The notes under the pieces were generated by a model. It was not told the origin of the DNA, did no database searches, and worked only from the letters and a program-made list of their open reading frames with translations. Source: Psammoneis japonica (Eukaryota). Taken from it: a stretch of DNA of 64,000 nucleotides. The DNA lies in NCBI GenBank assembly GCA_008632985.1, contig QPGO01000158.1, positions 1 to 64,000 of the forward strand, written 5' to 3'. Each line of letters opens with the position of its first letter. Positions within the stretch are counted from its first letter, which is position 1. Both the position numbers and the translations under genes were made by a program. Shown one piece after another: positions 32,304-56,772 of this stretch.

Positions 32304-32972
32304 GCTGTACTATAGAATGATTGAGGCTAAGCCATACAGTACTAGTCTGAGAACTGATAAGCAAGAACTGCGTGTTGGCTTGATGTTTGATGTTGTTGAT
32401 GCGTCGTCGGTCGTCGACGGTCGGCGGCAGAAAAATAAAATTGAAATTGAGTGGCAGGTTGACGGGGAGCTCATAACCAAAAAATTGACATGCGTGACTG
32501 ACGGTTTCTCAGTCGTGGATCGATGACGAGGACGACCAAACAAAAAAGCAAAAGAAAACCATGGTACATGAACAGCTGATGGACACTGTCATTATGAGAC
32601 TAGGCTTACAAAGTCTTTCGTTAAGGTCACAAATGCTTTCGAGCTGGATTGAGGACGATCACATATAGTGTTATGATCGAACGAGCCGATTACCTGTGGT
32701 CTGTCCGACCATCGATTTTGACGAGTTGCACGCATCTTGCATGCACAACCGCACAAATTTTCAAAAAATGAAAAACTCTCCACCCGACGCCCGACGCGAC
32801 GTTTCGCATCAGGCATACATACACCACTCCGCCGCCTGACTGGTTGCCATTTGCCATTCTTCGTCTTCCTGGACACTTTTACGATGGTCGAAAGCTTGGA
32901 CGAGACAAAAGAAAAGGCGCCATAAAGGCATTCTTTCCACAGCACACCGCTTGATGTTCGCCCTTTCCAACA

Positions 32973-33863
32973 ATGTCTAGAGACAGTAATGACGACGACG
33001 ACGACGATTCCTGCCTTGGTTTGGGATTCATGTTTGAGGGAGCCGAGGCCTCCGTGGTGAAACGCCTTCATTGGAAGATACCCAACGAAAACGACAATGA
33101 CGAAGAAGCGATTGAAGTTCTAGTCAAGGTTGTTGATGACGACCCCGGTGCGTTACAAAGCGGGCATTATCTGTGGCCAGGTGCACCGGCTCTAGCAGAA
33201 TACTTGCTGCTTTCTCGACGAGACAATGATCCTGAGATTCCTCCTCCCAAGTCAATCGTTGAACTCGGAGCGGGTTGTGCCTTGCTGTCTCTGACGGCAC
33301 TTTTGATATTTTCTTCATCACTTGACTCGGTTGTCTGCACAGATCATGACCCGGGAACATTGACAAGAGCCAAGGAAAATTATGAACTCAATCTGGCGGA
33401 ACTGCGTGACTTTAATGACATGGACGATCCGAGATGTGCAACTCTGGTGGAAAACGTCTCCTCTGTTCAATTTCATTTCGAGCCACTATCATGGGGAGAT
33501 GTCAATGCTGCCAATGCTCTTGTATCGGCAAATGGGAGTCGGTTCGACTGGATACTAGGATCGGATCTCATTTATTGTCAACAAGTCGTCGAACCTCTAT
33601 TCATTAGCGCATCCGCCTTGTTAAAAAGGGATTGTTCCAAAGGCGGCAAATTTATCTTATCTCAGAGCTTTGTGTACGACGAGGATACGGAACAAGAAAT
33701 TGAAAGAATGTGCGAAAAGCTAAACCTACAACGTATCGTCCGCGTAGACACACTTTCCGAAACAGCCGGCGCGGGAGTAAAAATTCAGGAGTTTTTACCC
33801 TTGCCTAGTAACAGTCAAAGAGCAGGTGACAATGTATTGCAAGGAACACTGCAGTATAAGTAA
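32973..33863 (+). CDS. Class I SAM-dependent protein methyltransferase (METTL21/Methyltransf_16-like)
   Basis: SGHYLWPGA, VELGAG, TDHD, LSWG and ILGSDLIY. Confidence 0.88.
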   Translation: MSRDSNDDDDDDSCLGLGFMFEGAEASVVKRLHWKIPNENDNDEEAIEVLVKVVDDDPGALQSGHYLWPGAPALAEYLLLSRRDNDPEIPPPKSIVELGAGCALLSLTALLIFSSSLDSVVCTDHDPGTLTRAKENYELNLAELRDFNDMDDPRCATLVENVSSVQFHFEPLSWGDVNAANALVSANGSRFDWILGSDLIYCQQVVEPLFISASALLKRDCSKGGKFILSQSFVYDEDTEQEIERMCEKLNLQRIVRVDTLSETAGAGVKIQEFLPLPSNSQRAGDNVLQGTLQYK

Positions 33864-34213
33864 AGGCGCTGACAATAGAGCAACGAGAATCATGCGGATA
33901 TGTATAATTGTCGTCTGGCTGCAACCACCTTCCAATTCAGCTTGCGCCGCCATCGCCACTCACATCGACACTTGCAGGCCCGCGATCCCACGATGAATTC
34001 GTTGGGGTGGATGACTCTTACGAGGACCTCGATTTTGACTGCAGTGACATTGAAGATGGAGTTAGCAAAGATATTCCTTCACATGCATCTGTCCAGAAGA
34101 GGGACCTGGCCTCTCTCTTCAGTTTTGTTGAGACGAGTGGGTTAAGTATGGCGAATAGGATCTTCTGCATTTCTTGTCTGGGTCTGCAAAGACTTTTACT
34201 ACTCTTTTTTTTA

Positions 34214-37846: not shown

Positions 37847-39524
37847 GTGCCTGTTCCCGGTCGAAGGTTGTTTATGAAAGTAAGCAAAGGCGACATGACG
37901 TCGTTGTCTGTTTCTGTGGTCATTCCTGTTTTGAATGAACAAGACACGCTTCCATTGCTGCTTCGACACCTTTCCTCGTGCACTCCTCCACCATCCGAGA
38001 TAATTGTTTCTGATGGAGGTTCATCGGACGGAACAGTAGATGTTGCTAGAAAGGCCGAGGTCGTGGTGGTGGAATCAAAGGCAGCAAGCGGAACTCGTGC
38101 CTTGTCGCTGAACCGCGGTCTGGCCGCAGCAACGAGCGATTTGGTTGTCTTTGTACATGCAGACACGTTTCCGCCAGCGGACTTTGTAAGCCACATCCAA
38201 AATACCATGGCGGATGTCCGCGTTTCGCTTGGCGCATTTCGAGCAATTATTGCCAGCAGTCACGATGTTTCGTCAGGAAAAATGGTTGTGAATAGAATCA
38301 TCACGGCACATCACTACATCAAGACATACTACGGACCACTCTTTCTGTACCCTTATCAAATGCTAGTGCTGGGCTTGAGATCTTTCTTTGGAGACCAGTG
38401 TATGTTTGGTCGCCGTCAGCAGCTACTAGAGGTGGCGGGCTTTGACAATGTCCCAATCATGGAGGAGTCTACGCTCTGCAAGAAAATGGTCCGATATGGG
38501 CGGCAGGTTCTTCTGAGCGCCACTTGCACGACACTAGATCGACGCATTGCGCTATATGGAACACTGCGTATAACTCTTCTCCATCTCTTTATCGGCTTTG
38601 GCGCCGAGCTGGGTATTCCTCTAAGTTGGCTCAGTCCTCTCTACCCTCCACAACACGAACTGGAGGAGCGTCAACGCCTGGCCAAGATCAGGTCACGTAT
38701 TCGCGGCAATCGCTTTTTTGAACAAACTTTATATGGAACGAAGTGGTGAATGAGAAATGCTACCATCACGATAGAGTGAAAATTCCGTCAGTGGGTGCGA
38801 CGGTGATTGATGTTGGTGCCAACATTGGTATCTTTTCCCTGTGGACTGCTAATTGTTGCCAGCTCAAAGGCGCTACGATCCATGCTATGAACCAAGTCCC
38901 AGCACATTCAAGCTTCTTGAGGCAAATGCCACTGAGCCGTCGGTAGAAGCAATTTCTGGGAATCGTATAGTGACACACAATCTGGCCATGACATCGTCCC
39001 AACAATCAGAACAACGTTCCACCATGCCCCTTACTACCTACCCCAACTGTTCCGGGTGGGCAACGTTTCATCAGGACGAAGAAACGCTGCGTGAAGATTT
39101 GTGGTGTTTTGTTTCCAATAGCATTGGTGCGGGCATTGGAAACAACTTTATGATCAAACGTGTCGTACTTCCGATTTTGAAAGCTCTTGTTTACCCCTTT
39201 GCCTTCAAAGTTCTTACATTGGGTGCTGCACGATCCAATGTACAAGTCGCATGCCTGTCATCATTCATGAAAGAAAACTCAATTGATTTGGTCGATTTTC
39301 TTAAAATCGATGTGGAACGACACGAGTACCAGGTGTTGTTGGGCATATCCGACAATGACTGGCCCAGGATTGAAGCTGTTGCCGTCGAGACAGAGGTCAA
39401 CCATGCCGCAATTCGAGAGCTCCTAGAAACACACCATTTCCTTGTTGAGGAAAAGAAGGAGCAACGGTTGCAAGGTGCTCCTCATACCATCATTTGGGGC
39501 ATGCGCGTACCCAAGATGGACTAA
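37847..39524 (+). CDS. GT2 glycosyltransferase (TIGR04283-like) apparently fused to an FkbM-family methyltransferase, frameshifted
   Basis: SVVIPVLNE, DGGSSD, FVHAD, FGDQCMF and PIMEE, followed directly by VIDVGANIG, YEP and LKIDVE in adjacent frames. Confidence 0.75.
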
Positions 39525-42500
39525 ATGACGGTTTTAGTTGTCACTGTTCTTTCTTATATTCTATTGTTGCACTGCTGCAAATGAAACATTGGGGATTCTG
39601 CGCTTCCTTTCATTCTCACTTTCTCTAGTTACAGATGCCGATTCTGTTGTTATGTCATCCTTGTTCTCCGAGCTCTTGGGGGTTCAGCCCGAAACTCCTT
39701 GTCCACCCTTGAGCTCCAGAAAGATGATGCCGCATGCTCCGTTTGCTGCAACGCAAATCCACCTTATGCTCTCCACGAACCGGGTGTTGTCGCGCACGGC
39801 TCGAGTGTCAAAGCCGATCGAGGAACTGCATCTACATTTTTGGTGATGGGATTGACCCTGTTCCCAAAGATGACCAAGATGTGCGTCAAGTTCCAATTCG
39901 CATTGAAACATTTGGAATGCCAGAAAGCACGATCCATCACAAACATCCGCGGCGCACCCACATCTTTTTTTGCGTGCCACTGGCATGGACAGTTGATGAA
40001 TGCTGTCAGCAAGACGACATCGTGCAATCCAAAATTAAACAAGAACAAGGATGTGTGCATTGTTCTTTGGCCCTCTTTTTTTTAATGTTCCTTGAAGTGC
40101 CTGTTTTTGCCCCAAATCAGATTGAACCCACATGGTGTCATTGCCACAGCCATGAGACAGGCCTCCACAAGATTGACAATTTCTGCAAAGCCAATGAGCA
40201 TGACACCAACAAGCAGCAGCCACAGCAAGCTCTTGCTGTGCATCATGCCCCACACTTGGACTAAGATGCCCAGTGCCATGACAGTCCATTCCCCACATTA
40301 AAAACATGTGTGCCTCTCAAAAAGAAAAAACAGCAATGAGGCCTAGCAGCAGCTGCTCAAAGTCTCTTCTTCCAGCCCATCAAGAATGGTCATGTTCAAG
40401 CACATGGTGTGCCCTTGCCGGCCACCATCAAAGCAGTGCCAAACACTCCAAAGCTGCACCAAAAAAAGTGTTGGAGACAACTGTCCCAACACAGCAAAGT
40501 GCAGCGGCAGTCATGAATGTTGTGCCACATGCTGCAAGGCAGGGTGTGGCTCAAGCAAAGGAGCATTGTCACCGGGTCCATTCTTTGGGCTTCAACAGGT
40601 TTGGCTGCACCCAAGAGCAAAACATCCAAGTCAGCAGAAAGAGGATGAGAACAAAGTGCAGGTCAGCACCACTCCAACATGCTCTGTTCACTCAGCGGAA
40701 GTTGCCAAGTGAACAAACAGTGTTGCAATTTGGGGGGACACTCAACACCCACACACAGCAGGTGTGGGGGGGGGGGGGGGGCATGACTGGAGCACACAAA
40801 CACACTCAAGGTGTTTTTTTTTGTCACTTGTTTGTGCACATGTGCACGTGCGTGCAAAAGGGGCGTCGTCACTGTCAAAGTTGGCAACAGAGAAATTGGT
40901 CACGTGAAATCTGGGCCAAGCCAAGAGTTTGCACACATGGTGGCTCAATGGGGATTCCGTTGGCAACTTGACAAGAGCTCAAATGGGGCTAAAATCCGTT
41001 GTGCCATGACTCCTCTTCCTGCACAAAGGGAAAAACTTTGTGCTGTCAGCCACAACCCACAAACCAACTCAAACAGCCCCTTTTGTTCACATGCATGTGT
41101 GCCTTGCACCCAGTTTGTTCTTCTGGCTGTGTGTGGCGGCATCTGCCTTGGAATGGTTTGTTTGTTTGTTTGCGTGTGTGCACATGCAAGAGTGCACATG
41201 TGCAAATGTGCAAGTGTGTGTTGCCAACAAAGTTTGGCACAGAGAAGCAGGAGTTGGTCACATGAAGCAAGTCCTGGTTGTTGGGTTGGGAGTTTGCACA
41301 GCCATGATGGTGCATGGGAACTTCCAGCCCATGGTGGCTTGGCTCACTTTAGAGTTCAAATGGGGCCAAGACCTTGTGCAAGAACAACTCTTCTTGAGGA
41401 AAGGGCAGAGCTTTGCACTGTCAGCATTGACTCTGCACAGTGTGCTGTGCTCAGTTGTGCTGCTGGTGAAACAACATGGAACAGCCACCCCTTGTGTTTG
41501 CACATGTGCACACCTTGTGCCCAGTGTGTTCCATGAATGGTGGTCAGTGCCCCAAAGAGCTTGTCTTCCATGGCGATCATTTGCATCTTTTGTGGCAGTG
41601 TGCTGCCTGCTTCCAACTCCAACCAATGCCCCTCTTTGGTGCTTCACAGTGACAATGAGTCCACAAAAAGTCAACCTCAGCTTGATGTGAATGTTCAAAT
41701 GATGGCAATGCATGGAGTCCATGGATGACTGCAGAAGTTTTGGCAAGACACTTTTGTTGGCAAGTGTGAGTCATCTGCTGACAACACTGCAAGCTGAGCC
41801 AATGGTGGTGGCTCATCTGCTGTGAAACAGTGTGCCAATCCTTGTCATGAGGAGTGCCCAATCTTGACACAACAGAGAGCCAAAGGCAGGTGGTGATGCA
41901 GAGACAGTGATGAAGACAGAGACAAAGATGCCAATGAGTCAGATGGGTTTTTTTGGGTTCCCCAACTGCAAAATGTTTCTCATTTGCAGCATGACCCTTT
42001 TCTGCAGCAGAAGGTTGTGCGCAATGTTCCTGCAACATCAAGAAAGTGTGATCCTGTGTTGTTTGCAATTTTACATTGAGGGTTGCAGTTGATGACAATC
42101 TTTGTCCAAGTGCAACATTTTTGTTCAAAGCACACATTTGCAATGCCCAACCAAAACTCATTTGTGCCACATTGTTGCACGGATGTGTTTGTTGTCAACA
42201 TTTGCAACATGTCTCCCCAAACTGCAACGGGATGAAAAGTCGCTCTCAGCACACCAACCATCCCATGTCCAAACTTGTTTCTCTTGTTCCTCTTTGTTGG
42301 CTCAGTTGTCTTCCGTGCAATTGTGCAGAAAGCAAAAGGTGATTTTGACCGGGATGGCAGGGGCACTTGCTGTTGTTGCACAGAATGGCAGTGAGCACAA
42401 ACAAAAGGAACAAACAGTGTCATGCTGCAAGTGCAGCTCAGCTCAAACAATGGGCCAACAAAGTCATGGCTTTTTTCATTTTCAACAGCACCAAAGCCAT

Positions 42501-42740
42501 GCCCAGCACTGGTGTGCATGGGCCACTGTTTCTGCCTGAGAGAAACACCAAAGGAAACATGCAACTCTGGCATTCTCAGTGCATCAGGAATCACTGGTTG
42601 GGCAGCAGAGCTGGTGGATGCCAGGATGATTCACATCAAAAGAATCACCCTGGAAATGGCCCAGCATGACACCCATTTTTTTCCACAATTGTCATTCTTT
42701 GTTGGTTGTGTGTCGGGTGCGTTTCATGACAGAAACATTG

Positions 42741-43348
42741 GGCAGCAGGTTGATGGAGAGCTCACAACAAAAATTGGCCTGCATGACTCATGCCATCTCA
42801 GTCACAGATGGTGAGAACAGCCAAATAAAAAACAGCAAAAGAAAAGCTGTGGGCACATGAACAAATGATGGAGGATGCACTGTCAGCACAAGATTGTTTT
42901 TTTTACGTTGATGACTTGCTGTGGTGTGATCCAAGGCACACATCTCCTTGGTTCAATTTCATTTCAAGTCACTGTCATGGGGAGATGTCATTGCTGTCAA
43001 TGCTCCAGTCTTGGCAAATGGGAATCAGTTTGACTGGATGCTGGGATTGGATCTCATTTGTTGGCAACAAGCAACAAGTCATCTCCAACCTCCATTCATC
43101 AGTGCACCAGCTCTCTTCCTTGCTTGAAAAAGGGTTCTTGTTCCAAAAGATGCAAATCCATCTCATCTCATCTCAGAGCTTTGCACATGATGAGGACACA
43201 GAACAAGAAATTGAAAGAATGTGCAAAAAGCCAAAACTGCAATGCATTGTCTGCACAGACACACTTTCCAAAACAGCAATCACAGGAGCTGAGCCCAAGG
43301 AATTCTTTCCCAGTGCCTTTCAACCATCATCACAGAGCAGGTGACAAC
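42741..43348 (+). pseudogene. Degenerate copy of the 32973-33863 methyltransferase gene and its upstream region (42741-42893 ~ 32451-32600; 42951-43348 ~ 33465-33833)
   Basis: SQSFAHDEDTEQEIERMCKKPKLQCIVCTDTLSKTA matches SQSFVYDEDTEQEIERMCEKLNLQRIVRVDTLSETA, and the DNA aligns directly. Confidence 0.95.
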
Positions 43349-43699
43349 ACATCAAGATCAGGAGGGATCAGGAACATCACAGCTCAAGCACAGCTGCTGA
43401 AAATGTCAACACAAAAAGAATTCTCATGAGCAGCTGGGTTCAACAATGCAATGGGCCACAAGTGCTGCACATTCATTCGGCAGGGCAGCACATGTGGAGA
43501 GCATGCCCACACCCACAACATTTAGATTTCAGGTCTTGGACTGAGCTCACATTGGGCCATCCCCAGCATGGCAAACCAAGCAACTCAACAAATGCAAAAA
43601 CATGCTGAAACAAATTTTGCTGCACCCATGTGTTGTGCTGGAGTCACCTCAGCTCAAGTGGCAGTGCAAAAAAGCTTGGCTGTGAATCACTTCTTCTTT

Positions 43700-44400
43700 C
43701 AACACACAAAATGCAGTCTGCAGAAGATCTGAAGCAATGGGTGCACCCATGTGCCTCACTGGATGGCCCTGAGTTCTCCTGTGTGTTGTGAGCCCTGACA
43801 AACCATCACCCTTCCAAATTCTTCTGTGACCACAGTGACCTTGAGACCACTTTGTTGGGTGTGCACATTTTTGGTGTGTGCACTCCACTCCTGTGGTGCT
43901 CACCTCTGGATTTCTCTTGTGCTTGCAGGCTTCTTCTGAGTGCCACAGCCATTCTGTGTGCACTGGTTGGACTCAGCCACAAATTTTGTCCCATGGTCAA
44001 AAATGTGACCTGGGATTGTCGCAGGTGTCTGCATGACCAGGCTTGTTCTGCAGTGCCTCCTGCCACTGTGTCTGTGCATTTTGCAGTTGAAACTCTCTGC
44101 AGCCGGTGTGTTTGGCATGTTCTTGGCCATTTGACAATCATGGGGGTTGGCTCTGCACCAAGGCACTTGGTCCATTGCCACAAACCTGTGTTTGGCTCTC
44201 CAGTGCTCCTCACCACCAAGCTGGGAAACACACCATTTTCATTGGTGTGGTCATTGCAGTGGTCATGGCTGGGTCCAAAGCTGGGCTGCTGTGTTGTGAT
44301 GGCCTTTGAAATGGCATGGGCAGCAATGCACAGCTCTCCCATGTCATCCCATGGGGGCTTGATCTTCTCCTGTGCACACACCACCCTGCATGAGTGACAA
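43700..44400 (-). mobile_element. Degenerate LTR-retrotransposon (Ty3/gypsy-like) integrase remnant
   Basis: Across frames, AEQAWSCRH.RQSQV / IFDHGTKFVAE / KRNPEVSTTGVECTHQ resemble the integrase core W..RYP.P....DRG.EF...NPQAN..VER.H. Confidence 0.5.
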
Positions 44401-47400
44401 GTGTGCAAAGAGCAGCTGCCCTCCTGCTGTCTGTGCATCAGGGATGCACAGTTTTTTGTTGCTGGCTGTGATGCCCTCATGAATGAACTGATGATTTTTT
44501 TATGAAAAATGTGCTTTGAGACAAGTTGCAGTTGTCAGTGATGATGGTTGCATGTCTTGCAGTCATGTGGATTGGTGCAGAGGAGGTCTCTCAACATCAT
44601 GAGGCAATGCTTGTGGCAGCTCAAATTCTGTGGCAGTGCTGTTGGTGACTGTTGTTGAGAAGTGGTGGAGAACTTAGATTGCCTGGCCATGCACCTCACA
44701 TTTCTGTTCAACATGGCAGCAGTCATGGAGGTGATGAAATGAATGCAGTGGTGTGATGTGCACCCTTGGGATCATGGCAAAGAAAGAACAAAGAACAAAG
44801 ATCAGAAGAATTTCCAGAATTGGATGTGATTGATGTGGATCAGGCACAAAGAAGTGCTTTGAGCTCTGCTGGAGAGAACTCTGGACAGCTCCTCAGCATG
44901 AGCTGGCCTTCTGCACATTTGCTCACCACCCCACAATCTTTGTGCTCCTTGCATGAGAACAAATGACTTCAACCACCACATTGTGCAAATCATTTGTGGC
45001 AGCATTCAGTCACGCTGATGATCGAGCAGCAACTGTGCTTGCAGAATCTTTTTGAACCCTGTTGGAGGCATGTGGTGTGGTGAGCCACTCATTTTTTTTG
45101 TGCTGTTTTTCACAAGTTTTTGTGGTCATTGTCCCATCCATCAGAGTGAAGCAACAATTGCAAAGGTCTCTCAGACCAAAATGCACACTGGAGCACACAC
45201 CTTCATTGACTGGCTGACTCAACAAAAAATGGTGGTGTGGATGGAGCCACCCCCAGATGTCAGTGTTGGGTGGCCAAACTCAGATGCACTCTCCAGCCCC
45301 CCAGATGGTGACCCACATGTCATTTGGCGTGCAGGGTTCCACACGCAAGCTCTGCAGCATGAGAATTTAGTCCATGGACATGTTTGTCTTCAACAGCAAA
45401 CAAATGACCAAGTTTGTGGTGCAACTGTGCCTCTTGACACTTGCCAGGTGTTTTGAAGCTTTGCCTGCTGCTCTGCACCATTTTCAAGACATTTAAGAAT
45501 GCAGCACTGCAAAAATGTAGAAAGTTGTTGAGTGGATGGCCCAATGACTGCACCACAAGATGGCACAAATTGCACCAAAGTTGCACGAAAAATGTGCATG
45601 CATGACACATGGCCTGCAGATGAAAACATGACTTCAACATCACAGTCCAGCACTGCAAGCTGCAAGGTCCTGCCCAGAGCTGGAGTGCATCCTCAATGGC
45701 ATGAGCAACACAAAAGAACCTGGTGTCAACCAAGAGTCCCACATCACACAGTTCTTTTTGTGGAAAGAAGATCACAACATTTCTGGAACAGCTCAAAGTG
45801 AGTGCACTTTGCAGTGCCACTTTTGTCACAATTGCTTCAGAAACAACAGTCAAGAAGGAAAACCATTTGCTTCCCTCCCAGATGAGCAAGTGATTCAAGA
45901 TGACAGGGGTGCTTGTGCCAGAGCAAGAAGCTGAGTGAGTCACAAATGCCAGAGCAAAGCAGAGCATGCTGCAGCATCTTCTGGAGAGTCCATGCCCCCA
46001 CCATGCAATTGGGTTTTCCAGCACACCAAACACCCCTGGCACTGACAAAACTTCAACTGGTCCAGCCCAACTGGTGCTCTCCATTTGGGTTCTCCAATCT
46101 GAAGAAGGCTTTGAGAGTTGCACCTGCATCTTGCGTCAGCTCTGGATCCTCTGACAACAGCAACTTAACACAAATGCACCTTCTTCACTCTCTGCTTTTC
46201 TCAGCTGACTCTTGTTCCTGAGAGTCTTCATTCTTTCTTCACTTCTGATGTTCTGTTCTTTGTCTTTGACTTGTGTTCACCTTCACCTTCATCAACATCT
46301 GCATCTCTCTCCTCTCTTCAATTCTTCAACTCTTGATTGAGTGCAATGAACAGATGCAGATGAGGCATGCAGTGCCATGCATTCCAGAGAATGCTGGAGT
46401 TCAGCTGGGCCTCAACACAAAGACGTCACGTGTCGTCAGCTGTTTTTTGCATTTTCTGTTGTTGCCACAAAGCGTGCCCAGGAATCAGCGATGTTTTTGA
46501 AAGTGGCAAGTTTCCACGAATGTTCTACATGCAAGACAATGGTGTCAATTCTGCAGAGGAGGTGCACAAAATTCACAGTGATTGAGAAATTTAGCAACAG
46601 TCATGACTCAAACAAAATCTCTCCAAAAGCTTTTTCTTTTGTGCTTGATTTTTGATTGCAACTCATTGTCTTGCATGATGTGTTTGTTGCAGCACTTGTG
46701 GAATCTTGCTGTGCATGGTGATTCTGTTTCAACTGCAGCACTGTGTTGCAACTGCACGACTCGTCTGTGACAAAAATGTTGTGTCAAATTTGCACAAAGG
46801 TGCCTTGCACTTCCGTGTTGCAAGTGATCGCTTTCTCTGGACACACCTTCTGTCCACAGAGAGCAGCAGGGATTCACACCATCATCCATTGCACTGGTTG
46901 GTGGTGCCTTGTTTTGCTGTCGTTTCTTTTTGATTTGTTTGTGCGCATCTTGTTTTGTGTCAGCGGAGCTTGTCAGCAGTTCTGCTGCTGTGTTGCTGGT
47001 TGTGGCTCAGTCGGGGGCCCAATGCAAGTGCTCCCATTGAGGCAAATTCACACTGACCAGCTTGGTTTTTTTCTGCCAAACTCAGTTGTGTTTTTTGTTT
47101 GTTTGTGTCAAGAGCATTCCAGTCATCATGGTGTGTCCTTGCCAGCATGAAGTGCAGTCAACAACTCATGATGCACAGTGTCATTGGTTGCTCTGTCATC
47201 AATTGCATCAATCCTGCCTTCTGTGCTTTCTCAACTTTTCCCATTTGCTTTCCCCAAAGCTGGAGGATTGTCCCACTCAAATGTCACCACGTTTCTGGCT
47301 GAATTGGAGCCATGAAAGCAATCACCTTGAACAACCCCAAAGTTTGGAGGCATGAGAGCAGAGCTCTTGCCGAATGACACTTGTGAATGCCACTCCACCA

Positions 47401-49805
47401 ACAACTCCAGACCTCTGCACTTTTCTGCTGCACAAACAGCAAACCATTTTCTGGGATGGAATCCTGATGACTGAAGCCGTGCAGTCAAAGCTGCAAGGTC
47501 ATTCAATGCCAGGTCACATGTGGTGCTTGCAGAAGCCATCCAAAGTCAAAGTGATCTCATGAAGCCTCCACCGAAGGTTGTTCAAAGCCAAACAACTGTC
47601 ACCCCTTGGTGCAAAAGTGCAATGGCCTGCCCACAACAACCCAAAACAAACCCTTTCTTGCCTTTTCTTCAGAGCCATTCAATGCTTGTAGCCAGCCAAC
47701 AGCATTTCCTCCCTTGGTTTTCCCTTGCTGGAGTGCCATTCCTGACATCTGCACACTTAAAGCCCATGTCCCAACCTGTCAAGTCAGTGATGCAAGGAAT
47801 CATCACTTCCACCTGCTTGATTGTTGCCTCTGAGGACACCCACCAGCATGATTTGCTCTTTGGGATGGAGCCAGACTCTCTTTTATGCTTGAGCAATGTC
47901 TTGTGACTGCTCCAATCTGAGATTGCATTGAAGTGAAGCTTGTCACATTTCTTTGCAAGAAATGGATGATGCAGTGGTGAGGAGCAGTCCAAAGAATCAA
48001 GACCAAGCATTCTTGCATCGTGCACATGTTTTGTGCCGGTTTTGTCATCTGAACAATTTCAGCCTTGACCTGAAGATCAAAACATGAAAGACAAGTTCCA
48101 AGTCCTCACACTGGATTTGATTTGCAAACAAACAGAACATTCTTGGGAGCCTTGACATCTGTGCAGTGAAATGAAACCAAGTGCAGCTGAGAGAACGAGA
48201 AGCAAAAACACACAAGTTGAGCACTTGCAAAAGTGCAAACTCGCCGGCAGATGACAAGTCCCCCAGCATTTCCAAAACAATGGCATGCAATTTGTCTTCT
48301 CATTTGTGAATCTCTTCTCCTTGTTGTCTGGCCTTTTCATGAATTTTGTCTTCATCCACTTGATTTGCTTTTGAGTGCAGTGCTTTGCAGGAGATGGCAT
48401 CCTGCATCATCTTCCATGACATTCAAGCAAATCTTCAACTCCATGAGGATCATCAAATGCATCATGAATCACCAAGGCATGAACAATGCACACATCCACA
48501 AATGGTTGTCCATTGGCATTGCAACACATGCCACTTGAATCCATTCTGGCACACCATCTTCATGCTCTGCCACGGTTCCCAATGACAAGAGTTGCTGTTG
48601 CGCTGTTGTTTGGTGCTGTTGGAAGATGCCACCATGAGTCCATCCAGTGCTTGCAAAGGACCCTGTTCCAACAAACTCAACTGCAAATGAGATCCAATGG
48701 CAGCCGGCATCCCGCACCCCATTCATTTCAGTCGCTGCAATCAGCCCTTGCTGCAGCAATTTGTCCTTGCTCAAGACGCGTCCACTTGTTTTCAAAATCA
48801 TTTTTTAGACCATGTTCAACACTCGTGTTGTTTGTTGCAGTGTTGAACAGTCCACAAATGCAGCCACTTCCATTTCCATTGCCCGCAGGGTCTCCGTGTC
48901 TCTGCATCGACAACAGTGCTGCAGGCACACAGAATCAACACTTGCAGAGAATTTGCACTGGGCAGAAGAATCAAGGAGGAGTGCACCTGTCAGTTCAACT
49001 GGCCTGCCCCTCACTTTCCTCATCTCACCAGGTGGTTCACAAGATCTTTGGAGAGGCAGTGTCCAATCGGAGGACACAGACTGCAAGAAGTGATGGCTGT
49101 GAACGCCGTTGCTGTGGCCAAGATCGCACTGGACCAGCAAGCGGGTTGAGACTGCATCAACTGTTGCCATGTTGAAACCGCCCCACAACTGACTCTGTGG
49201 AATTGTGAGAAAGTGTGTTTGTTTGACGCTCTGGACCCATCCATGGTTGTGGATTGCTGGGACAAGCAGGCATGAATGAGCTCACCACAGGTGGCGGCTC
49301 AAACAATGAGTCGTGCAATTTGCGCAGGCGATGGTGGGCAGGCATCTTGCGGTCGGCGGTCTGTGCTCTAGTTAGAGCAGCTAGCTCTACCCTCTACTCT
49401 AGAGAGTAGAGAAGTAGTCTGCTCTACTGCTGCTAGCTAGTGCCGGCAGCAGCTGCTCTAGCAGTGGCTAGTAGAGACAGTCGTCAGAGAGTGTTGTTGT
49501 GAGCACACGGGTGTCGAAGCGCGCGGGAACCAATTTTCCATTATCCGGGTTCCACAAAATATCCAACCATGACAAAAGGCAAAGCGGCAAAAGCAAAGCC
49601 ACAAACAAACAGCCAAATCCATACAACAAGCCAAAGAGAGAGTAAAAATGGCGATACGGTAGACTCTGGGGAGAGTAGCTGTTACAAGCTGAAAAGTTGA
49701 ATTATGGTATTGTAAGTCAAACAAACTACGAGAGTTGATAAGATTTTTCGGCCCCCATTGGCTCCTGGAATACAGTATATGCAGGCGAAGAACAAGAAAT
49801 ATGTT

Positions 49806-50510
49806 TCAATCAAAGATGATCTCAAGAGTCGGAGTTTGGAAGATGTCAGAATCGAAAGAAACCATCAAGAAAGTGTCAGCCACGTCGGTTTTGGGGTTCA
49901 CCAGAGCCCATCCATGATTCGACTCGGGATCCGTGATGAATTGGGCAACGTCGTTAGTCACATCAAGCTCAAGGGAAGCTGGCTGCCCGTTATCTCCGTG
50001 TTCTGGGAGTTCAGCAAGGTCAGACGCTTCCAGCTCAGGAATATTGGCCCCTGTAGCGGTCGTGTCCCAAGGCGAAATCACGCGCTTCAGAGATACAGGG
50101 TCGCCGCCGGTGCCGGAAAGTGCAACGATCCGGAGGGTAGCAGACTTCACCGTCGCGTCAGTTGGGATACCTTGTGGCAAATCAAACTTAATCAAAGACA
50201 AGGCAAAGCCATTCTCTTCTACAGAAGTACCCGCCAGAGCACGGAGAAGGCCGAAATCAGGGGCGTCGGCGCCAGTAGTACCTTGAGCGCCTTCTCTTCC
50301 AGGACTGATCACAGAAATATCTATACCTGCAGTGAGGGTCAAGGGCGCCGTCGGGCAAAACCATGAGTCCTTCTTGCCAACCGCACAATGCTTTCCAGTC
50401 TTTGTCTTGCTCTTCTGTTTCGTGCCGTCCTTCGCTGGAGCTCCCTTTATCAAGCGAGCGTCACCCACGGAAATCAACGCAAGTATTGCTGGAAGAAAAA
50501 GGTACTTCAT
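49806..50510 (-). CDS. Secreted protein with a DNRLRE/CBM96-like beta-domain
   Basis: Signal peptide MKYLFLPAILALISVGDA, then LIKFDLP..IP..ATV.SATLRI, LDVT..V, NHGW and P.LEI. Confidence 0.65.
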   Translation of the reverse strand: MKYLFLPAILALISVGDARLIKGAPAKDGTKQKSKTKTGKHCAVGKKDSWFCPTAPLTLTAGIDISVISPGREGAQGTTGADAPDFGLLRALAGTSVEENGFALSLIKFDLPQGIPTDATVKSATLRIVALSGTGGDPVSLKRVISPWDTTATGANIPELEASDLAELPEHGDNGQPASLELDVTNDVAQFITDPESNHGWALVNPKTDVADTFLMVSFDSDIFQTPTLEIIFD

Positions 50511-51074
50511 TGCTACTTTTTTGTGTCTGCAGAGCCCGAAGTAAAAGACTTTCTGCAGTTGTTCTTGCGTGCGCCTTTCTGCGTTTTGATCATTCTTGGC
50601 GCCTTCGCGCTTGGGTCTTTCTTGGCGCCTTTCCTCAATCGTGACACCTTTCGCGATTGTTTCTTTCGTTCGCCTTTTCGCGCGGCTGTTCTTTCGTGGC
50701 GCCTTTCTGAAGCGGGTTGTTTCGTTCTGCCTTTTTCACAGTTGTTTTTGCGTGACGCCTCTGCGTCTTTACTCATTCTTGGCGCCTTGGCGCGTTTGTT
50801 CATCCGTGGCGCCTTGTCTCGTTTGTCCTTTCGTGACGTCGTTGCGCGTTTGCTCGTTCTTGGCGCCATCCGACATTTTCTCTTTCGTGGCGGCTTTCTG
50901 AGTTTATTAATTCATGATGCCTTTCCGACATTTTTGTTTTCGTAACGCCTTTCCCTTTTGCTCTGTCGTGGCGCCTTTCCAGTAATTAAGCTTTCGTCCG
51001 TGATCGAAAATCACGCTCGTTTCAAGGCTCACTTTCAAGCAACTCGACACACTTTTAACGGAGCTCATTTCACC

Positions 51075-53687: not shown

Positions 53688-54333
53688 ATACTCTCATTAC
53701 ATACTTACTTCACTTTGTCCATAACTCGGAAACCAGAAGCATCGCCAATGTCATTCCGCTGTATTGAGTTTCTCATTTCCATAATCGAAATCGAAGCTGT
53801 CACCAGAATTGAGACTTCACATGTATAGCGATTACACTAGTTCAACGATTGATTTCACTGTTGGCCAGTTCTTCTGCTGTTTTCTAACTCCGTTCAGATA
53901 GAAGCTATAGAGCCCCTCTAGGTCGAAAATCTCTACTGAGCGATAGCATTTTTGAGTACTTTTCCTTTCNCGCGCTCGCACTTCTCTTGGTTTGTTTTCT
54001 GTGCTGCAAGCTGCAAGCAAGTCCAGCCAAACGAGCAGAGGTAGGTTAGGTCTCTAGAGCTACTCTCTCTAGTAGAGTAGAGTAGAGAGGTAGGTGTGCA
54101 ACAACAAACTTTCATCAATGTGCAAATTTAGTCTGGGACGGACGGACGGCACTCTTTGTGTCCGGGTTACATACCGTTCTGGCCGCGACACGCAAGAACA
54201 ATGCCTCGTCTGTAGTATCAATACCAAATTCTACACGATTCTTTCTCGCTCCGCCACCCGCCTGCCACCACCTACCGCACCACGAGCACACTGCATGCAT
54301 TCGTGGCCATGCACAACAAGCAACAACGCAACC

Positions 54334-56772
54334 ATGACAACGAAAATGCAAGCCGACGCCAACAACGAGAAACCGAGCAGCACCAAGGACGCCAAGAGCA
54401 AACCAGTGACGGGAGACGACGAGGAACGAATCCGAGAGCGTTTGAAACAAAAGCAAGAAGCGCGCCGTGCTTCGTCGGCCGCTGCTGCTGCAAACCCGGA
54501 AACCAACAAGAGCGACAACAAGAGGAAGAGCGACAGCAAGAAGGACAAGGACGAGACATCACCCTCCCATAAGAAACGCCGTCGTCATCGAGGACACAAT
54601 AGCAATCGACACGGAGACCGTCACCACCGTCCTCATCACGGCGGCGGCCATCATGGTCATCGGCGCGGCGGCCCACCTCCTCCGCCCGAGTGGAGAGGCC
54701 GAGGTCCTCCTCCGCACATGATGCCTCGTCATGGAGGAAATGATCGTCACTGGAGAGGAAGAGGAGGTCCGCCACCTCCGCCACCGGAATGGAGAGGACG
54801 CGGTCCGCCGCCTCCTCATTATCGTCGCGATGTAGGCCCGCATTATCGCGAAGGAGGAGGAGGTCGCCGTAGTCGGTCCATGTCTCGCAGCATGAGTCAT
54901 TCACGGTCGTACAGTCGCTCCAGGAGTCGGAGTTACTCGTCGTCATCATCGAGATCGAGGAGTGTGAGCAGTAGCAGAAGTAGGAGCGAGTCGTCGAGAT
55001 CGAGGAGTTATAGTCGCAGTCGATCGCGCTCTCGTGATAGACGCCATCGTCGACACCGACGCAGTCCTTCGTATTCCGACATGTCGACCGACGCGTCTTC
55101 GGCTTCGTATTCTTCCTCTTCGTCCGAGTCGGATTCGGAAGACAAGAACAATACCAAAAATGCCGCGGACGACCTTACCAAGGACCAGCGCACCGTGCTT
55201 GTATCGCAGCTAGTCATGCGCACCACGGAACGGGATGTCAAGAAGTTTTTTCGCAAGACTCTCAAACTCAAGGTCAAGGAAGTCATTTTGTTGCGAGACC
55301 GACGGACCAATCGTCACAAGGGTATTGCCTATGTAGAACTGGCAGAGCTGCAGGACGTTCAGAAAGCTATTGCCGCGAGTGGCGTTGCTCCGGACTTTCA
55401 ACGCTTTCCCATTCTCATCAAGGCGTCTGAAGCCGAAAAGAATTACTCTGGAACAGCGGCGGCGACCGTGGCTCCGGCAGGTCCCATGGTGGATGCCGCT
55501 GGCAAACTCTACGAGGCACAACGGGTCTATGTGGGTAATTTGGATCCATCCGTTGGCGCAGAACAACTTCAAACAGTCTTTGTCAATTTCGGGGCGCTTC
55601 ACAAGGTGGCGCTTCAGACCGAGCCATCGACGGGGGTGTCTAGAGGATTTGTATTCTTATCCTTTTCCGATCCCAAGGCTGCCAATCTTGCCATTCAGGC
55701 AATGGCGGGACAAGTGTGGGCAGGACGAGCGATGTAAGTACTTATTGCTGTTGTGGATGGATTGAAATTATTTTTTTGAGCTGGTTTCTAACCCAACGTT
55801 TACCATCATTTATCTGCGTTTCTCTTTCAATACAGAAAAACAGGCTGGGCAAACCACACGTCGTCCATGCCGGGTGTCGAAATGCGCACTTCGGATGAGT
55901 TCCCCGACGATGCCGCTGCAAGGATTCAAAAGGCACAAATGTCGCTTGCGCAAGTCCAAGCCTTGGGTGCCGCCACTCCTGCTGCCGGCGTGCCATCCGC
56001 AGCCGTGTCGTCTGTTGCCGAGGCTGCCATTAATGCGGCTCTTGGACTGCCCATGCCGTCGAATCTTGCTGCCGTCGCCCCTGCGGCTGCTGCTCCTGCT
56101 GCGGTTGCCCCGGCCGTAGTTGCTAGTGTACCAGTTGCAGCTCCTACAATCCCATCGGTATCTGCTCCAAGTATTCCTGTTGCTGCTCCTACAAGTAGTA
56201 CAACCGCTGCTGTAGCTGGTAGTGAGGATGCCAAGACAGTCCTCGGTACTCCGTCAATGCATTTACTTGTTCGCAACATGTTCAACAAGGACGAAGAAAC
56301 CGAAGCTGGTTGGGAAGAAGAGATTCGTTTAGACTTTGAAGAAGAGTGTCAGAAGTATGGCAAAATGGATTATGTACAGGTCATGTCGAGCGAGCCGGGT
56401 GGTAAGATTTACGCAAGTTTCACTACATTGGATGGAGCTAAAAATTGTGCTGTTAGTCTTGCAGGTCGATGGTTTGACAAGCGTCAATTGCGGGTAGAGT
56501 ATGTTTCCGAACAAGACTTGCCCAAGAATAGTAAGATCAAGAAAGAAGAAGATGCCTGTACACCAGAGGCCAAGATGGTACAGGACGTGAAGAAGGAAAA
56601 CGGCGACGCCTTACCCGTTATTGAGGTCGTCAAGAGACAGGACAATGGTTCTCTAGACAAAGCGGTCAAGGCGGAGAACGATGGACCATCTGGATCTGTT
56701 GTAAAGGAGGGAGGCGACGAATCTCCAGCGACTGCAGTAAGGAAGGTCGACGACGTCAGAAAGGAGGAGTGA
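54334..56772 (+). CDS. RBM39: RBM39/CC1-like RS-domain splicing factor with two RRMs and a UHM
   Basis: RS tract, DQRTVLVSQL...KGIAYVEL, VYVGNL...SRGFVF, and LLVRNMF...EEC.KYG...GRWF. The intron is at 55734-55835. Confidence 0.88.

Follow-up and report, generated by a model that had tools for sequence, protein, structure and literature searches.

In a diatom-like nuclear genome, a domain of some 9.3 kb that is present as a single copy has probably been rewritten by transitions at CG and TA through two components with different footprints (we put the probability of this reading at roughly 0.6). The scope of the analysis is this one domain in one window, that is, the whole 64,000-nt stretch of DNA studied here. 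The domain extends over approximately 40022–49366, contains no recognisable genes, and occupies the gap between two convergent genes (Table 1). On this reading, the domain was once ordinary DNA, to which at least one piece of a neighbouring gene belonged, and conversion of CG to TG or CA and of TA to CA or TG rewrote it, every site being altered singly and with either strand equally likely; GC content, the pattern of purines and pyrimidines, and the remaining dinucleotides stayed normal. The direction and specificity of the changes, their strand symmetry, and the different footprints are shown by the data, and methylation, the chromatin state, the enzymes, and any present activity are inferred. 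The first component, a CG loss that is patchy, graded on the right, and still polymorphic, would reflect silent chromatin in which methylated CpG is deaminated. The second would be a separate and fuller purge of TpA (T:A to C:G) with a sharp right boundary, probably because T or A at TpA is modified or deaminated within the limits of the domain.

Composition of the domain and searches for its origin

The observed/expected ratios in the domain were 0.16 for CG (80 sites), 0.03 for TA (18 sites), 1.93 for CA, and 1.87 for TG, against 1.00, 0.56, 1.16, and 1.16, respectively, in the flanks. CA and TG were almost doubled, and the total of pyrimidine-purine (YR) steps was unaltered at about 48–52 per 200 bp in both domain and flanks; GC content was also kept (47.7% vs. 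48.8%), and TpA/ApT in the domain was 18/508. In 300-bp windows, (CG+TA)/YR had a mean of 0.040 and a maximum of 0.132 within the TA-purged interval, compared with a mean of 0.398 and a minimum of 0.177 in the flanks; a threshold of about 0.15 thus sets the domain apart from every flank window of this size. The loss of TA was near-uniform through the domain (18 left in 9,022 bp), and that of CG was patchy, with survivors clustered at 40847–40997, 42180–42350, 46424–46964, and 48573–49357. An earlier note on this DNA had described the core as lacking both steps, and the counts bear this out: 41000–48572 held 44 CG against 449 expected and 16 TA against 277 expected. Thirteen of the 18 surviving TA lay in TTA, compared with 21.6% in the flanks (P = 6e-6), and from this excess the TA purge is dependent on context.

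Table 1. Features in and around the domain, in positions of the window
Feature	Position	Strand	Details
Intact parent gene, Methyltransf_16 (lysine methyltransferase) family	32973..33863	+	296 aa; normal CG and TA content
Left neighbour ORF, FkbM-type methyltransferase domain	38853..39524	+	3' end toward domain
Possible outer TA-poor zone, normal CG, marginal	39652..40021		22 CG, 2 TA
Left-edge zone, reversed order	40022..40344		CG 0, TA 5
CG-depleted interval	40022..48572		Abrupt left start, patchy survivors within, gradual recovery at right
TA-purged interval	40345..49366		18 TA in 9,022 bp vs. 330 expected; sharp step at right end
Decayed copy of methyltransferase upstream region	42700..42896	+	Parent 32391-32602; purine/pyrimidine-alphabet seeds and transition-tolerant alignment
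Decayed copy of methyltransferase 3' half	42908..43422	+	Parent 33412-33891
Short pieces matching many other contigs of run X1	45374..45666		Summed depth up to 5,882 vs. ~55; unaligned contig ends CG-rich
Right-edge zone	48573..49366		TA 1 vs. 29.1 expected, CG 25 vs. 47.1 expected (half retained)
CTAG/TAG-rich low-complexity stretch just outside right border	49367..49480		14 TA in ~105 bp
Right neighbour ORF, CBM96 domain	49806..50510	-	3' end toward domain

Searches for function or ancestry gave little. The window yielded nothing in scans against Rfam and for tRNAs, and among the 119 stop-to-stop six-frame ORFs of at least 50 aa in 40000–49500, none matched Pfam above the curated cut-off, 11 weak matches lying below it (E 0.017–0.095). 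The Pfam scan overlooked a true gene relic (see below) and is therefore hardly informative on the ancestry of the domain. When former coding frames were sought by codon usage, the same relic fell outside the top 25 windows. Protein searches with the ORFs 45323–46135 (minus strand) and 40038–40316 (minus strand, longer proteins) returned no match. The ORF 48472–49281 (minus strand), with one TAA read as X, gave three weak matches to long repeat/immunoglobulin proteins, which recurred along the targets' own repeats and were judged spurious. Long repeats, terminal or inverted, were sought in a conversion-blind encoding, and only alternating pyrimidine-purine low complexity was detected, in a short run at 40825–41550. 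The best relatives of NAT10 in the protein database, metagenomes included, were only 66% identical, so that close relatives are unlikely to be found in metagenomes.

Direction and independence of the changes

The direction of change could be read from a decayed copy of a methyltransferase gene within the domain, whose parent is found at a distance of 10 kb in the window (Table 1). The copy was recovered with a purine/pyrimidine-alphabet search; it lacks the middle part of the parent (32602–33455, roughly 850 bp), and at the protein level the relic at 42908–43422 retains 40% identity to the parent (E 4e-18). The 38 aligned CG of the parent had become TG in 16 cases and CA in 13, with 2 kept and 7 otherwise changed, and its 29 aligned TA had become CA in 16 cases and TG in 8, with none kept and 5 otherwise changed; the two TA fates were interleaved along the sequence. 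Meanwhile, parental CA was unchanged at 36 of 43 sites and TG at 31 of 43, and other sites differed at 10–16%. In the best-aligned core, CG was lost at 23/23 sites (18 to CA/TG) and TA at 17/17 (15 to CA/TG), compared with differences at 18 of the 180 sites outside pyrimidine-purine steps. Every context tested in the copy converts, TTAA and CTAG included. The word "decay" in the earlier note had the direction right, both steps being converted to CA/TG in this comparison. Seven of the 43 TG look as if flipped to CA, but changes on the parent side could account for this as well, so that these sites are no proof of a persistent process. The identified parent covers about 710 of the approximately 9,300 bp, and the same history is assumed, from composition alone, for the remainder.

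To compare these changes with the whole domain, all CG and TA of the flanks were randomly converted to TG or CA. The converted flanks closely resembled the domain in CA (119.4/kb vs. 119.9 observed), TG (121.6 vs. 117.0), AA (81.0 vs. 80.6), and AC (57.0 vs. 56.8), and across 164 four-letter words the correlation with the domain was 0.85 for converted flanks and 0.49 for unconverted ones. CA and TG were almost equally frequent in the domain (1,082 vs. 1,056), and their outcomes were unclustered (runs z = -0.43 over 2,138 steps), as in the randomly converted flanks. The changes are strand-symmetric and independent from site to site; together with the simulation and the parent-copy comparison, this shows that the composition is caused by mutation in place.

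Borders of the two depletions and support from sequencing runs

The two depletions differ at both edges of the domain. At the right edge, about 13 CG and no TA had been reported for 49081–49366, and recounting gave exactly 13 CG and 0 TA in these 286 bp. At flank rates (59.3/kb for CG and 36.6/kb for TA), 17.0 CG would be expected, making the observed number approximately normal (Poisson P(≤13) = 0.20), whereas the expected number of TA is 10.5 (P(0) = 2.8e-5). The TA-free run exceeds this span, reaching from 48807 to 49368 with 562 bp between successive TA; none of 52,578 flank windows of 562 bp was TA-free, and the 11 TA-free windows among 53,130 of 286 bp were all located at one GC-rich gene. 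Over 48700–49366 as a whole, there was 1 TA against 24.4 expected, and CG was partially depleted (23 against 39.5 expected), rising toward the border. The TA depletion ends in an abrupt step at 49366/49367, and the CG depletion is a ramp that fades over roughly 48600–49800. The CTAG-rich stretch at 49367–49480 folded no better than shuffled sequence (z = -1.03), and its core word showed no repeat elsewhere in the window.

At the left edge, the order was reversed. CG was absent from 40022–40344 (19.2 expected; P = 5e-9) and, more widely, from 40022–40418 (23.5 expected), and no CG-free 323-bp window occurred among 53,056 in the flanks, while TA kept 5 sites of 11.8 expected in 40022–40344, four of the five in a TTA/TAA context. 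As background for the marginal TA-poor zone at 39652–40021, 198 of 52,962 flank windows of 370 bp had two or fewer TA. The segment 40230–40309 was about 90% alike to another contig of runs X1 and X2, which has CG where the window has TG. The proposal of two separable processes in the earlier note is upheld insofar as the CG and TA depletions differ in footprint and texture; its suggestion that the TpA process is faster or spreads further holds at the right edge only and fails at the left. Uniform rates combined with younger edges would predict the same lagging dinucleotide at both edges, and since this is not the case, at least one process varies in space. The staggered borders are the best current evidence for two activities, or for one activity with two substrate requirements.

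The stretch was found in one public run (X1), from a single study, and no RNA run containing it is listed. Contigs of X1 covered the domain at a depth of 55–66, compared with 52–55 in the flanks, bridged both borders, and differed from the window by only about 0.2–0.8% with the same composition. This depth, the bridged borders, and the low divergence indicate that the composition is that of real DNA rather than an assembly artefact. Contigs of run X2 covered the flanking genes and, of the domain, only short, roughly 85%-alike pieces, a result that carries no information on expression. Among the differences between window and X1 that were listed (40 of 129), 36 were in the domain, of which 20 create or destroy CG and 1 destroys TA; by this share of CG changes, the loss of CG is probably recent or ongoing. 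The summed depth was raised to 130–347 at 47674–49341 (vs. about 55), which suggests that close relatives of the right part of the domain exist elsewhere in the genome, and 45374–45666 is the relic of a high-copy repeat.

Alternative explanations and comparison with known systems

One machine acting on both dinucleotides is a possible but unlikely alternative. A reader or enzyme for symmetric 5-methylpyrimidine pairs at self-complementary YpR steps would treat the T in TpA as the 5mC in mCpG and change one pyrimidine (mC to T, T to C), by TET/JBP-type oxidation followed by mispairing or as a reversible deaminase. TA would always be a substrate, so that its loss would mark the true domain, and CG would be a substrate only where previously methylated, making its loss patchy. 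Consistent with this idea, both targets are self-complementary YpR steps that end as CA/TG in a strand-symmetric and site-autonomous manner, and TA loss is more uniform and complete than CG loss, whose survivors are clustered. T and 5mC are analogous in their 5-methyl group, oxidised thymine is mutagenic, and thymine hydroxylation is TpA-biased in trypanosomes and dinoflagellates; the idea draws on these three points, for which our literature search returned no paper. At the left edge, however, CG is fully lost where TA persists, which would require spontaneous mCpG decay beyond the domain of the machine, and we know of no enzyme of this kind that drives germline-type hypermutation. We regard as improbable a mosaic of ages, in which rates are uniform and the edges are younger insertions or duplications with shorter exposure, the zonation then recording history rather than footprints. 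The domain is indeed of mixed origin, with a gene copy, the approximately 90%-alike fragment at 40230–40309, and the repeat relics at 45374–45666, and the raised depth at 47674–49341 fits as well; but the dinucleotide that lags is CG at the right edge and TA at the left, and CG recovers along a smooth ramp of more than 1 kb, not blockwise.

Fungal-type repeat-induced point mutation (RIP), acting on duplicated DNA through a RID-related DNMT4, is quite improbable despite the duplicated gene fragment inside the mutated domain. RIP would yield only C:G to T:A changes and an enrichment of TpA, but roughly half of the changes here run from T:A to C:G, with TpA erased; moreover, the parent copy is untouched, so that duplication alone is no trigger, for most of the domain the window contains no detectable duplicate, and strand-coherent runs are absent. 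In its favour, DNMT4 enzymes related to fungal RID, of unknown function, are reported to be widespread in diatoms (31 of 60 species; PMC9998398). Selection on a functional domain (structural or RNA), or for avoidance of TA and CG recognisers (a nuclease, TA-targeting transposons, or RNA decay, for example), appears very improbable: the sharp right border does adjoin a peculiar CTAG-rich stretch, but none of the 119 six-frame ORFs of the domain matched Pfam above cut-off, neither an Rfam family nor a tRNA was found, and a dead gene fragment forms part of the content. In non-coding DNA, selection would also need an implausible strength to act on some 850 individual dinucleotides, and the outcome, in which neither TG nor CA is preferred, is exactly that expected from neutral transitions. 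It is hardly credible that the domain is foreign DNA of unusual composition or that an artefact arose in sequencing, base calling, or assembly. The presence of the stretch in just one public run of one study would allow this, but the X1 contigs, slightly divergent and of the same composition, show flank-like depth and bridge both borders, and the domain carries a copy of a gene from the same window.

The preferred reading, rewriting at CG and TA by two components, describes a eukaryotic nuclear domain in which about 97% of the expected TpA was lost via T:A to C:G, CpG was lost too, GC content was kept, and no strand bias remains. To our knowledge, all cases of local, context-specific hypermutation of silent DNA (fungal RIP, methylated CpG decay) push toward A:T, and we know of no enzyme or process that gives T:A to C:G specifically at TpA with nearly 100% efficiency. 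Our search of the openly accessible literature turned up neither a purge of TpA to CpA/TpG nor domains free of CG and TA. The CG loss looks like ordinary methylated-CpG decay, and the different footprints of the TA and CG purges at the right edge suggest a hitherto undescribed form of local DNA mutation. If general, this would imply either a mutational activity at TpA or a chromatin-linked base modification that is new, with a possible role for RID-like DNMT4 or other unassigned diatom DNA-modifying enzymes, and in algal genomes sequence alone would suffice to map silent domains and hidden pseudogenes. It is also conceivable, and in our estimate distinctly unlikely, that diatoms or this lineage own a domain-restricted mutator that erases both self-complementary YpR steps, reading T at TpA like 5mC at mCpG and converting one of the two symmetrically paired pyrimidines (mC to T, T to C). 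If so, this would be a hypermutation linked to genome defence or heterochromatin whose specificity and whose direction (A:T to G:C) are known in no organism; its footprint would be the TA-free domains, and CG loss would report only prior methylation.

Several known systems share single traits with the domain. Like the centromeres of Phaeodactylum tricornutum, it is a gene-free region of a few kb without repeats, located between genes. Those centromeres are described as having low GC with long AT runs (10.1101/096016); the domain has 47% GC, and 41.8% in its lowest 500-bp window. A:T to G:C transitions with T (U) preferred before A also recall other activities. ADAR-type A-to-G editing has a 5'-U preference, and polymerase-eta errors fall at WA motifs in antibody hypermutation. 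Those systems are strand-coherent or hit AA, whereas the outcomes in the domain are strand-symmetric and unclustered and leave AA untouched: the one-strand clusters of ADAR-like hyperediting with retrocopying are absent (CA 1,082 vs. TG 1,056; runs z = -0.43), and AA, which polymerase eta would also hit, stands at 80.6/kb against the 81.0/kb predicted from CG and TA conversion alone. Very-short-patch repair of E. coli depletes CTAG via CCAG/CTGG and is the sole textbook case known to us of a repair bias that removes TA from a short word by converting T to C. This bacterial process, however, acts genome-wide and on a few longer words only, and it is far weaker than the loss of about 97% of all TA in the domain.

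The closest parallels are found in RIP and in methylated-CpG decay. RIP in fungi changes only C:G to T:A, prefers CpA, and creates TpA, leaving CpA/TpG depleted; it acts on duplicated sequence, mutates both copies, and needs a RID/DNMT4-type enzyme in the sexual cycle. As in ascomycete RIP and RIP-like fungal CpG hypermutation, the transitions in the domain are dense, dinucleotide-specific, and confined to a presumably silent stretch that contains repeats and pseudogenes, with neighbouring genes intact and coding relics unrecognisable. Unlike in RIP, TpA is destroyed by T:A to C:G (24 of 29 parental TA became CA/TG), CpA/TpG is the end product, GC is kept, and strand coherence is lacking; the RIP indices are the inverse of the fungal signature (TpA/ApT 18/508; o/e of CA 1.93, TG 1.87, and TA 0.03). 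The one duplicated fragment in the domain has an intact, unmutated parent of normal composition, and the rest is without a partner in the window. Methylated-CpG decay, as seen in vertebrates and methylated transposons, matches the CG component: parental CG changed symmetrically to TG (16) or CA (13), 29 of 38 in all, CpG o/e is about 0.16, the clustered CG survivors recall unmethylated islands, and CG sites dominate polymorphism (20 of 36 domain differences, among the 40 of 129 differences listed). Methylation of the domain would be deduced here from sequence, and TpA, which is spared in methylated-CpG decay, is the more extreme depletion of the domain.

Composition and setting of the depleted domain

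The CG- and TA-depleted domain (approximately 40022–49366, 9.3 kb) was the only one of its kind in the window and was flanked by two convergent ORFs, carrying an FkbM and a CBM96 domain, whose 3′ ends face it. CG and TA in its TA-purged interval fell far short of the numbers expected from the flanks, the rest of the window (see the table), whereas CA and TG were equally numerous and raised (observed/expected [o/e] 1.93 and 1.87). Pyrimidine-purine (YR) steps were constant along domain and flanks, at approximately 48–52 per 200 bp; the share of CG and TA among them, in 300-bp windows, averaged 0.040 in the domain (maximum 0.132) and 0.398 in the flanks (minimum 0.177). The GC content was 47.7%, compared with 48.8% in the flanks, where the o/e was 1.00 for CG and 0.56 for TA. 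The flank ORFs are long, of eukaryotic type, and densely packed, and encode a NAT10 RNA acetyltransferase, an NAD(P)H nitrite reductase, and SET, LRR, RRM, GT2, FkbM, and CBM domains. The closest relatives of the NAT10 ORF in the protein database were diatom sequences with at most 66% identity; the window is nuclear DNA from a diatom, or from a lineage close to the diatoms, without near kin in the databases.

The domain is real DNA. Contigs of X1, a public sequencing run, covered it at a depth of 55–66 (flanks, 52–55) and bridged both borders: one contig joins the left flank to the domain as far as 40781, and a second extends rightwards from 49255 into the flank. Because these contigs differed from the window at approximately 0.2–0.8% of sites, including 1-bp indels outside homopolymers, X1 represents another haplotype or isolate with the same composition, and an artefact is a less likely source of that composition. 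Contigs of X2, a much smaller run from the same sample, lay over both flanking genes and ended at approximately 39556 and 49602, positions that, should X2 prove to be RNA, would mark the 3′ ends of both convergent transcripts.

Neither an Rfam match nor a tRNA was found in the domain, and a Pfam search of its 119 six-frame ORFs returned zero families above the cut-off. Three short pieces were matched by many other X1 contigs, with summed depths far above the usual value of approximately 55, and the unaligned ends of these contigs were CG-rich; the pieces probably descend from high-copy repeats that have escaped the purge elsewhere.

Positions of the features discussed, with observed dinucleotide counts (expected counts at flank rates in brackets)
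Feature	Position	CG	TA	Remarks
Parent, upstream region	32391–32602			Copy at 42700–42896
Parent, 3′ half of gene	33412–33891			Copy at 42908–43422
GT2 glycosyltransferase and FkbM-type methyltransferase ORFs	37847–39524			Adjacent, left of domain
Gradual TA thinning	~39650–40345
Outside left CG border	39652–40021	22	2	CG normal; TA marginal, 198/52,962 flank windows equally TA-poor
Inside left CG border	40022–40344	0 (19.2)	5 (11.8)	CG, P = 5e-9; 4/5 TA of resistant TTA/TAA type
Second relic	40230–40309
TA-purged interval	40345–49366	80 (535)	18 (330)
G run	40766–40782			~17 G
Alternating pyrimidine-purine low complexity	40825–41550			TGTGCACATGTGCACGTGCGTGC-like; direct and inverted internal similarity
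Clusters of surviving CG	40847–40997, 42180–42350, 46424–46964, 48573–49357
Repeat relic (probable)	45172–45588			Summed X1 depth 5,882
Repeat relic (probable)	46423–46839			Summed X1 depth 891
Repeat relic (probable)	48091–48507			Summed X1 depth 347
Right-edge zone	48573–49366	25 (47.1)	1 (29.1)
Full TA-free run	48807–49368		0
Part of right edge in earlier note	49081–49366	13 (17.0)	0 (10.5)	CG, P = 0.20; TA, P = 2.8e-5
Right-border stretch	49367–49480			CTAG/TAG-rich, low complexity, short imperfect palindromes
TA-poor stretch outside domain	50504–50942	normal		TA gap 228 bp; adjoins CBM96 gene
Single N	53970
TA-poor stretch outside domain	54233–54832	normal		TA gap 297 bp; within GC-rich RRM-protein ORF

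The two TA-poor stretches to the right were the only ones outside the domain.

Mutation in place

Three lines of evidence indicate that the domain arose by mutation in place. When each flank CG and TA was randomly turned into TG or CA, the simulated frequencies per kb came close to those of the domain for CA (119.4 vs 119.9), TG (121.6 vs 117.0), AA (81.0 vs 80.6), AC (57.0 vs 56.8), and CT (61.6 vs 62.8), and the correlation of four-letter words (n = 164) between flanks and domain rose from 0.49 to 0.85. The misfits at GA, GC, and AT are of the kind that a largely coding reference, such as these flanks, should show against non-coding DNA.

Furthermore, a search in a purine/pyrimidine alphabet revealed, inside the domain, a dead gene copy that the Pfam search had missed; its parent is an intact 296-aa Methyltransf_16 gene approximately 10 kb to the left. 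The copy runs from the upstream region to approximately 30 bp beyond the stop codon, with some 850 bp of the middle deleted, and the two proteins share 40% identity (E 4e-18). The 38 aligned parental CG steps had become TG (16), CA (13), or other (7), with 2 kept; the 29 TA steps had become CA (16), TG (8), or other (5), with none kept. Parental CA and TG were retained in 36/43 and 31/43 cases. In the best-aligned core, 18 of 180 sites outside YR steps differed, whereas all 23 CG and all 17 TA were lost, 18 and 15 of them to CA/TG. With a working gene of ordinary composition as the parent, the change must have run from CG and TA to CA/TG, and it did so in every context tested, including TTAA, TTAG, and CTAG. 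The second relic is approximately 90% like another contig of X1 and X2, in which two of the window's TG steps are CG. The identified parent covers approximately 8% of the domain, and one locus was studied.

Separate borders of the two depletions

The earlier note had proposed, from the right edge, that TA loss and CG loss are separable and that the former is faster or reaches further. Its count there, about 13 CG and no TA, was exact, and given the expected numbers CG is about normal and TA is missing; the actual TA-free run is longer still. No TA-free window of 562 bp occurred among 52,578 in the flanks, and those of 286 bp (11/53,130) were all at one GC-rich gene. TA loss ends as a step (none in 48807–49366, then 14 in the next ~105 bp), exactly at a low-complexity border stretch that folds no better than its shuffles, whereas the CG share of YR steps, per 200 bp from 48401, follows a ramp: 0.02, 0.12, 0.08, 0.12, 0.15, 0.18, 0.11, 0.26, 0.32. 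At the left edge, CG ends abruptly at 40021/40022, with the next CG at 40419, and TA persists. Separability was thus borne out, but the greater reach of TA loss holds at the right edge and fails at the left. At this single locus, TA loss is sharply bounded at the right and graded at the left, and CG loss the other way round; inside, CG loss is patchy and TA loss uniform. Were both rates uniform and the edges merely younger, one and the same dinucleotide would be expected to lag at either end, and hence at least one process must differ from place to place; a mosaic of ages is a less likely account of the zonation.

Processes behind the two losses and known systems

The CG component is most likely decay of methylated CpG, with methylation that we infer: symmetric transitions, an o/e of 0.16, clustered survivors, and CG-dominated polymorphism fit this in every respect testable here. 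Among the differences from X1 that were listed (40/129), 36 were in the domain, and 20 of these create or destroy CG, with the CG on the X1 side in 14; the list also includes a pair that forms a CA-to-TG flip and one difference that removes a TA. On this evidence, CG loss appears to be recent or ongoing and to proceed far faster than change at other sites. Both versions share the TA-free state, which thus predates their split.

With 18 TA against 2,138 CA/TG steps, the TA component needs T:A to C:G change at TpA at perhaps 100 times the rate of TA re-creation from CA/TG. We know of no process giving such an excess, and none of that kind was found in open-access papers and bioRxiv. Context has some influence on the purge: TTA made up 13/18 surviving TA (21.6% in flanks, P = 6e-6), TTA or TAA 15/18, and TTAG 6/18 (3% of flank TA), suggesting either protection of the step by a neighbouring T/A or a different origin of these TA.

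Outcomes were strand-symmetric (CA 1,082, TG 1,056) and unclustered (runs z −0.43, n = 2,138 steps; randomly converted flanks, −1.75 to +0.38; copy, P = 0.053 and 0.63 under two strand definitions), a pattern that speaks against a deaminase moving processively along a single strand, retrocopying of edited RNA, and transcription-coupled damage; the untouched AA is evidence against a WA bias of the polymerase-eta type. Depletion by selection is also less likely. The best reading is that two chromatin-restricted activities, one for CG and one for TA, would have acted here. A bolder alternative is one activity to which the symmetric pair of 5-methyl groups in TpA looks the same as that in mCpG; it would account for TA loss being the more uniform mark but, at the left edge, needs additional assumptions. 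The enzymology of either is conjectural.

A centromere of the Phaeodactylum tricornutum type is excluded by the composition. Among named systems, RIP comes closest, and RID-related DNMT4 enzymes are present in diatoms (PMC9998398). However, the domain shows the reverse of the RIP signature, and here the parent gene copy is untouched.
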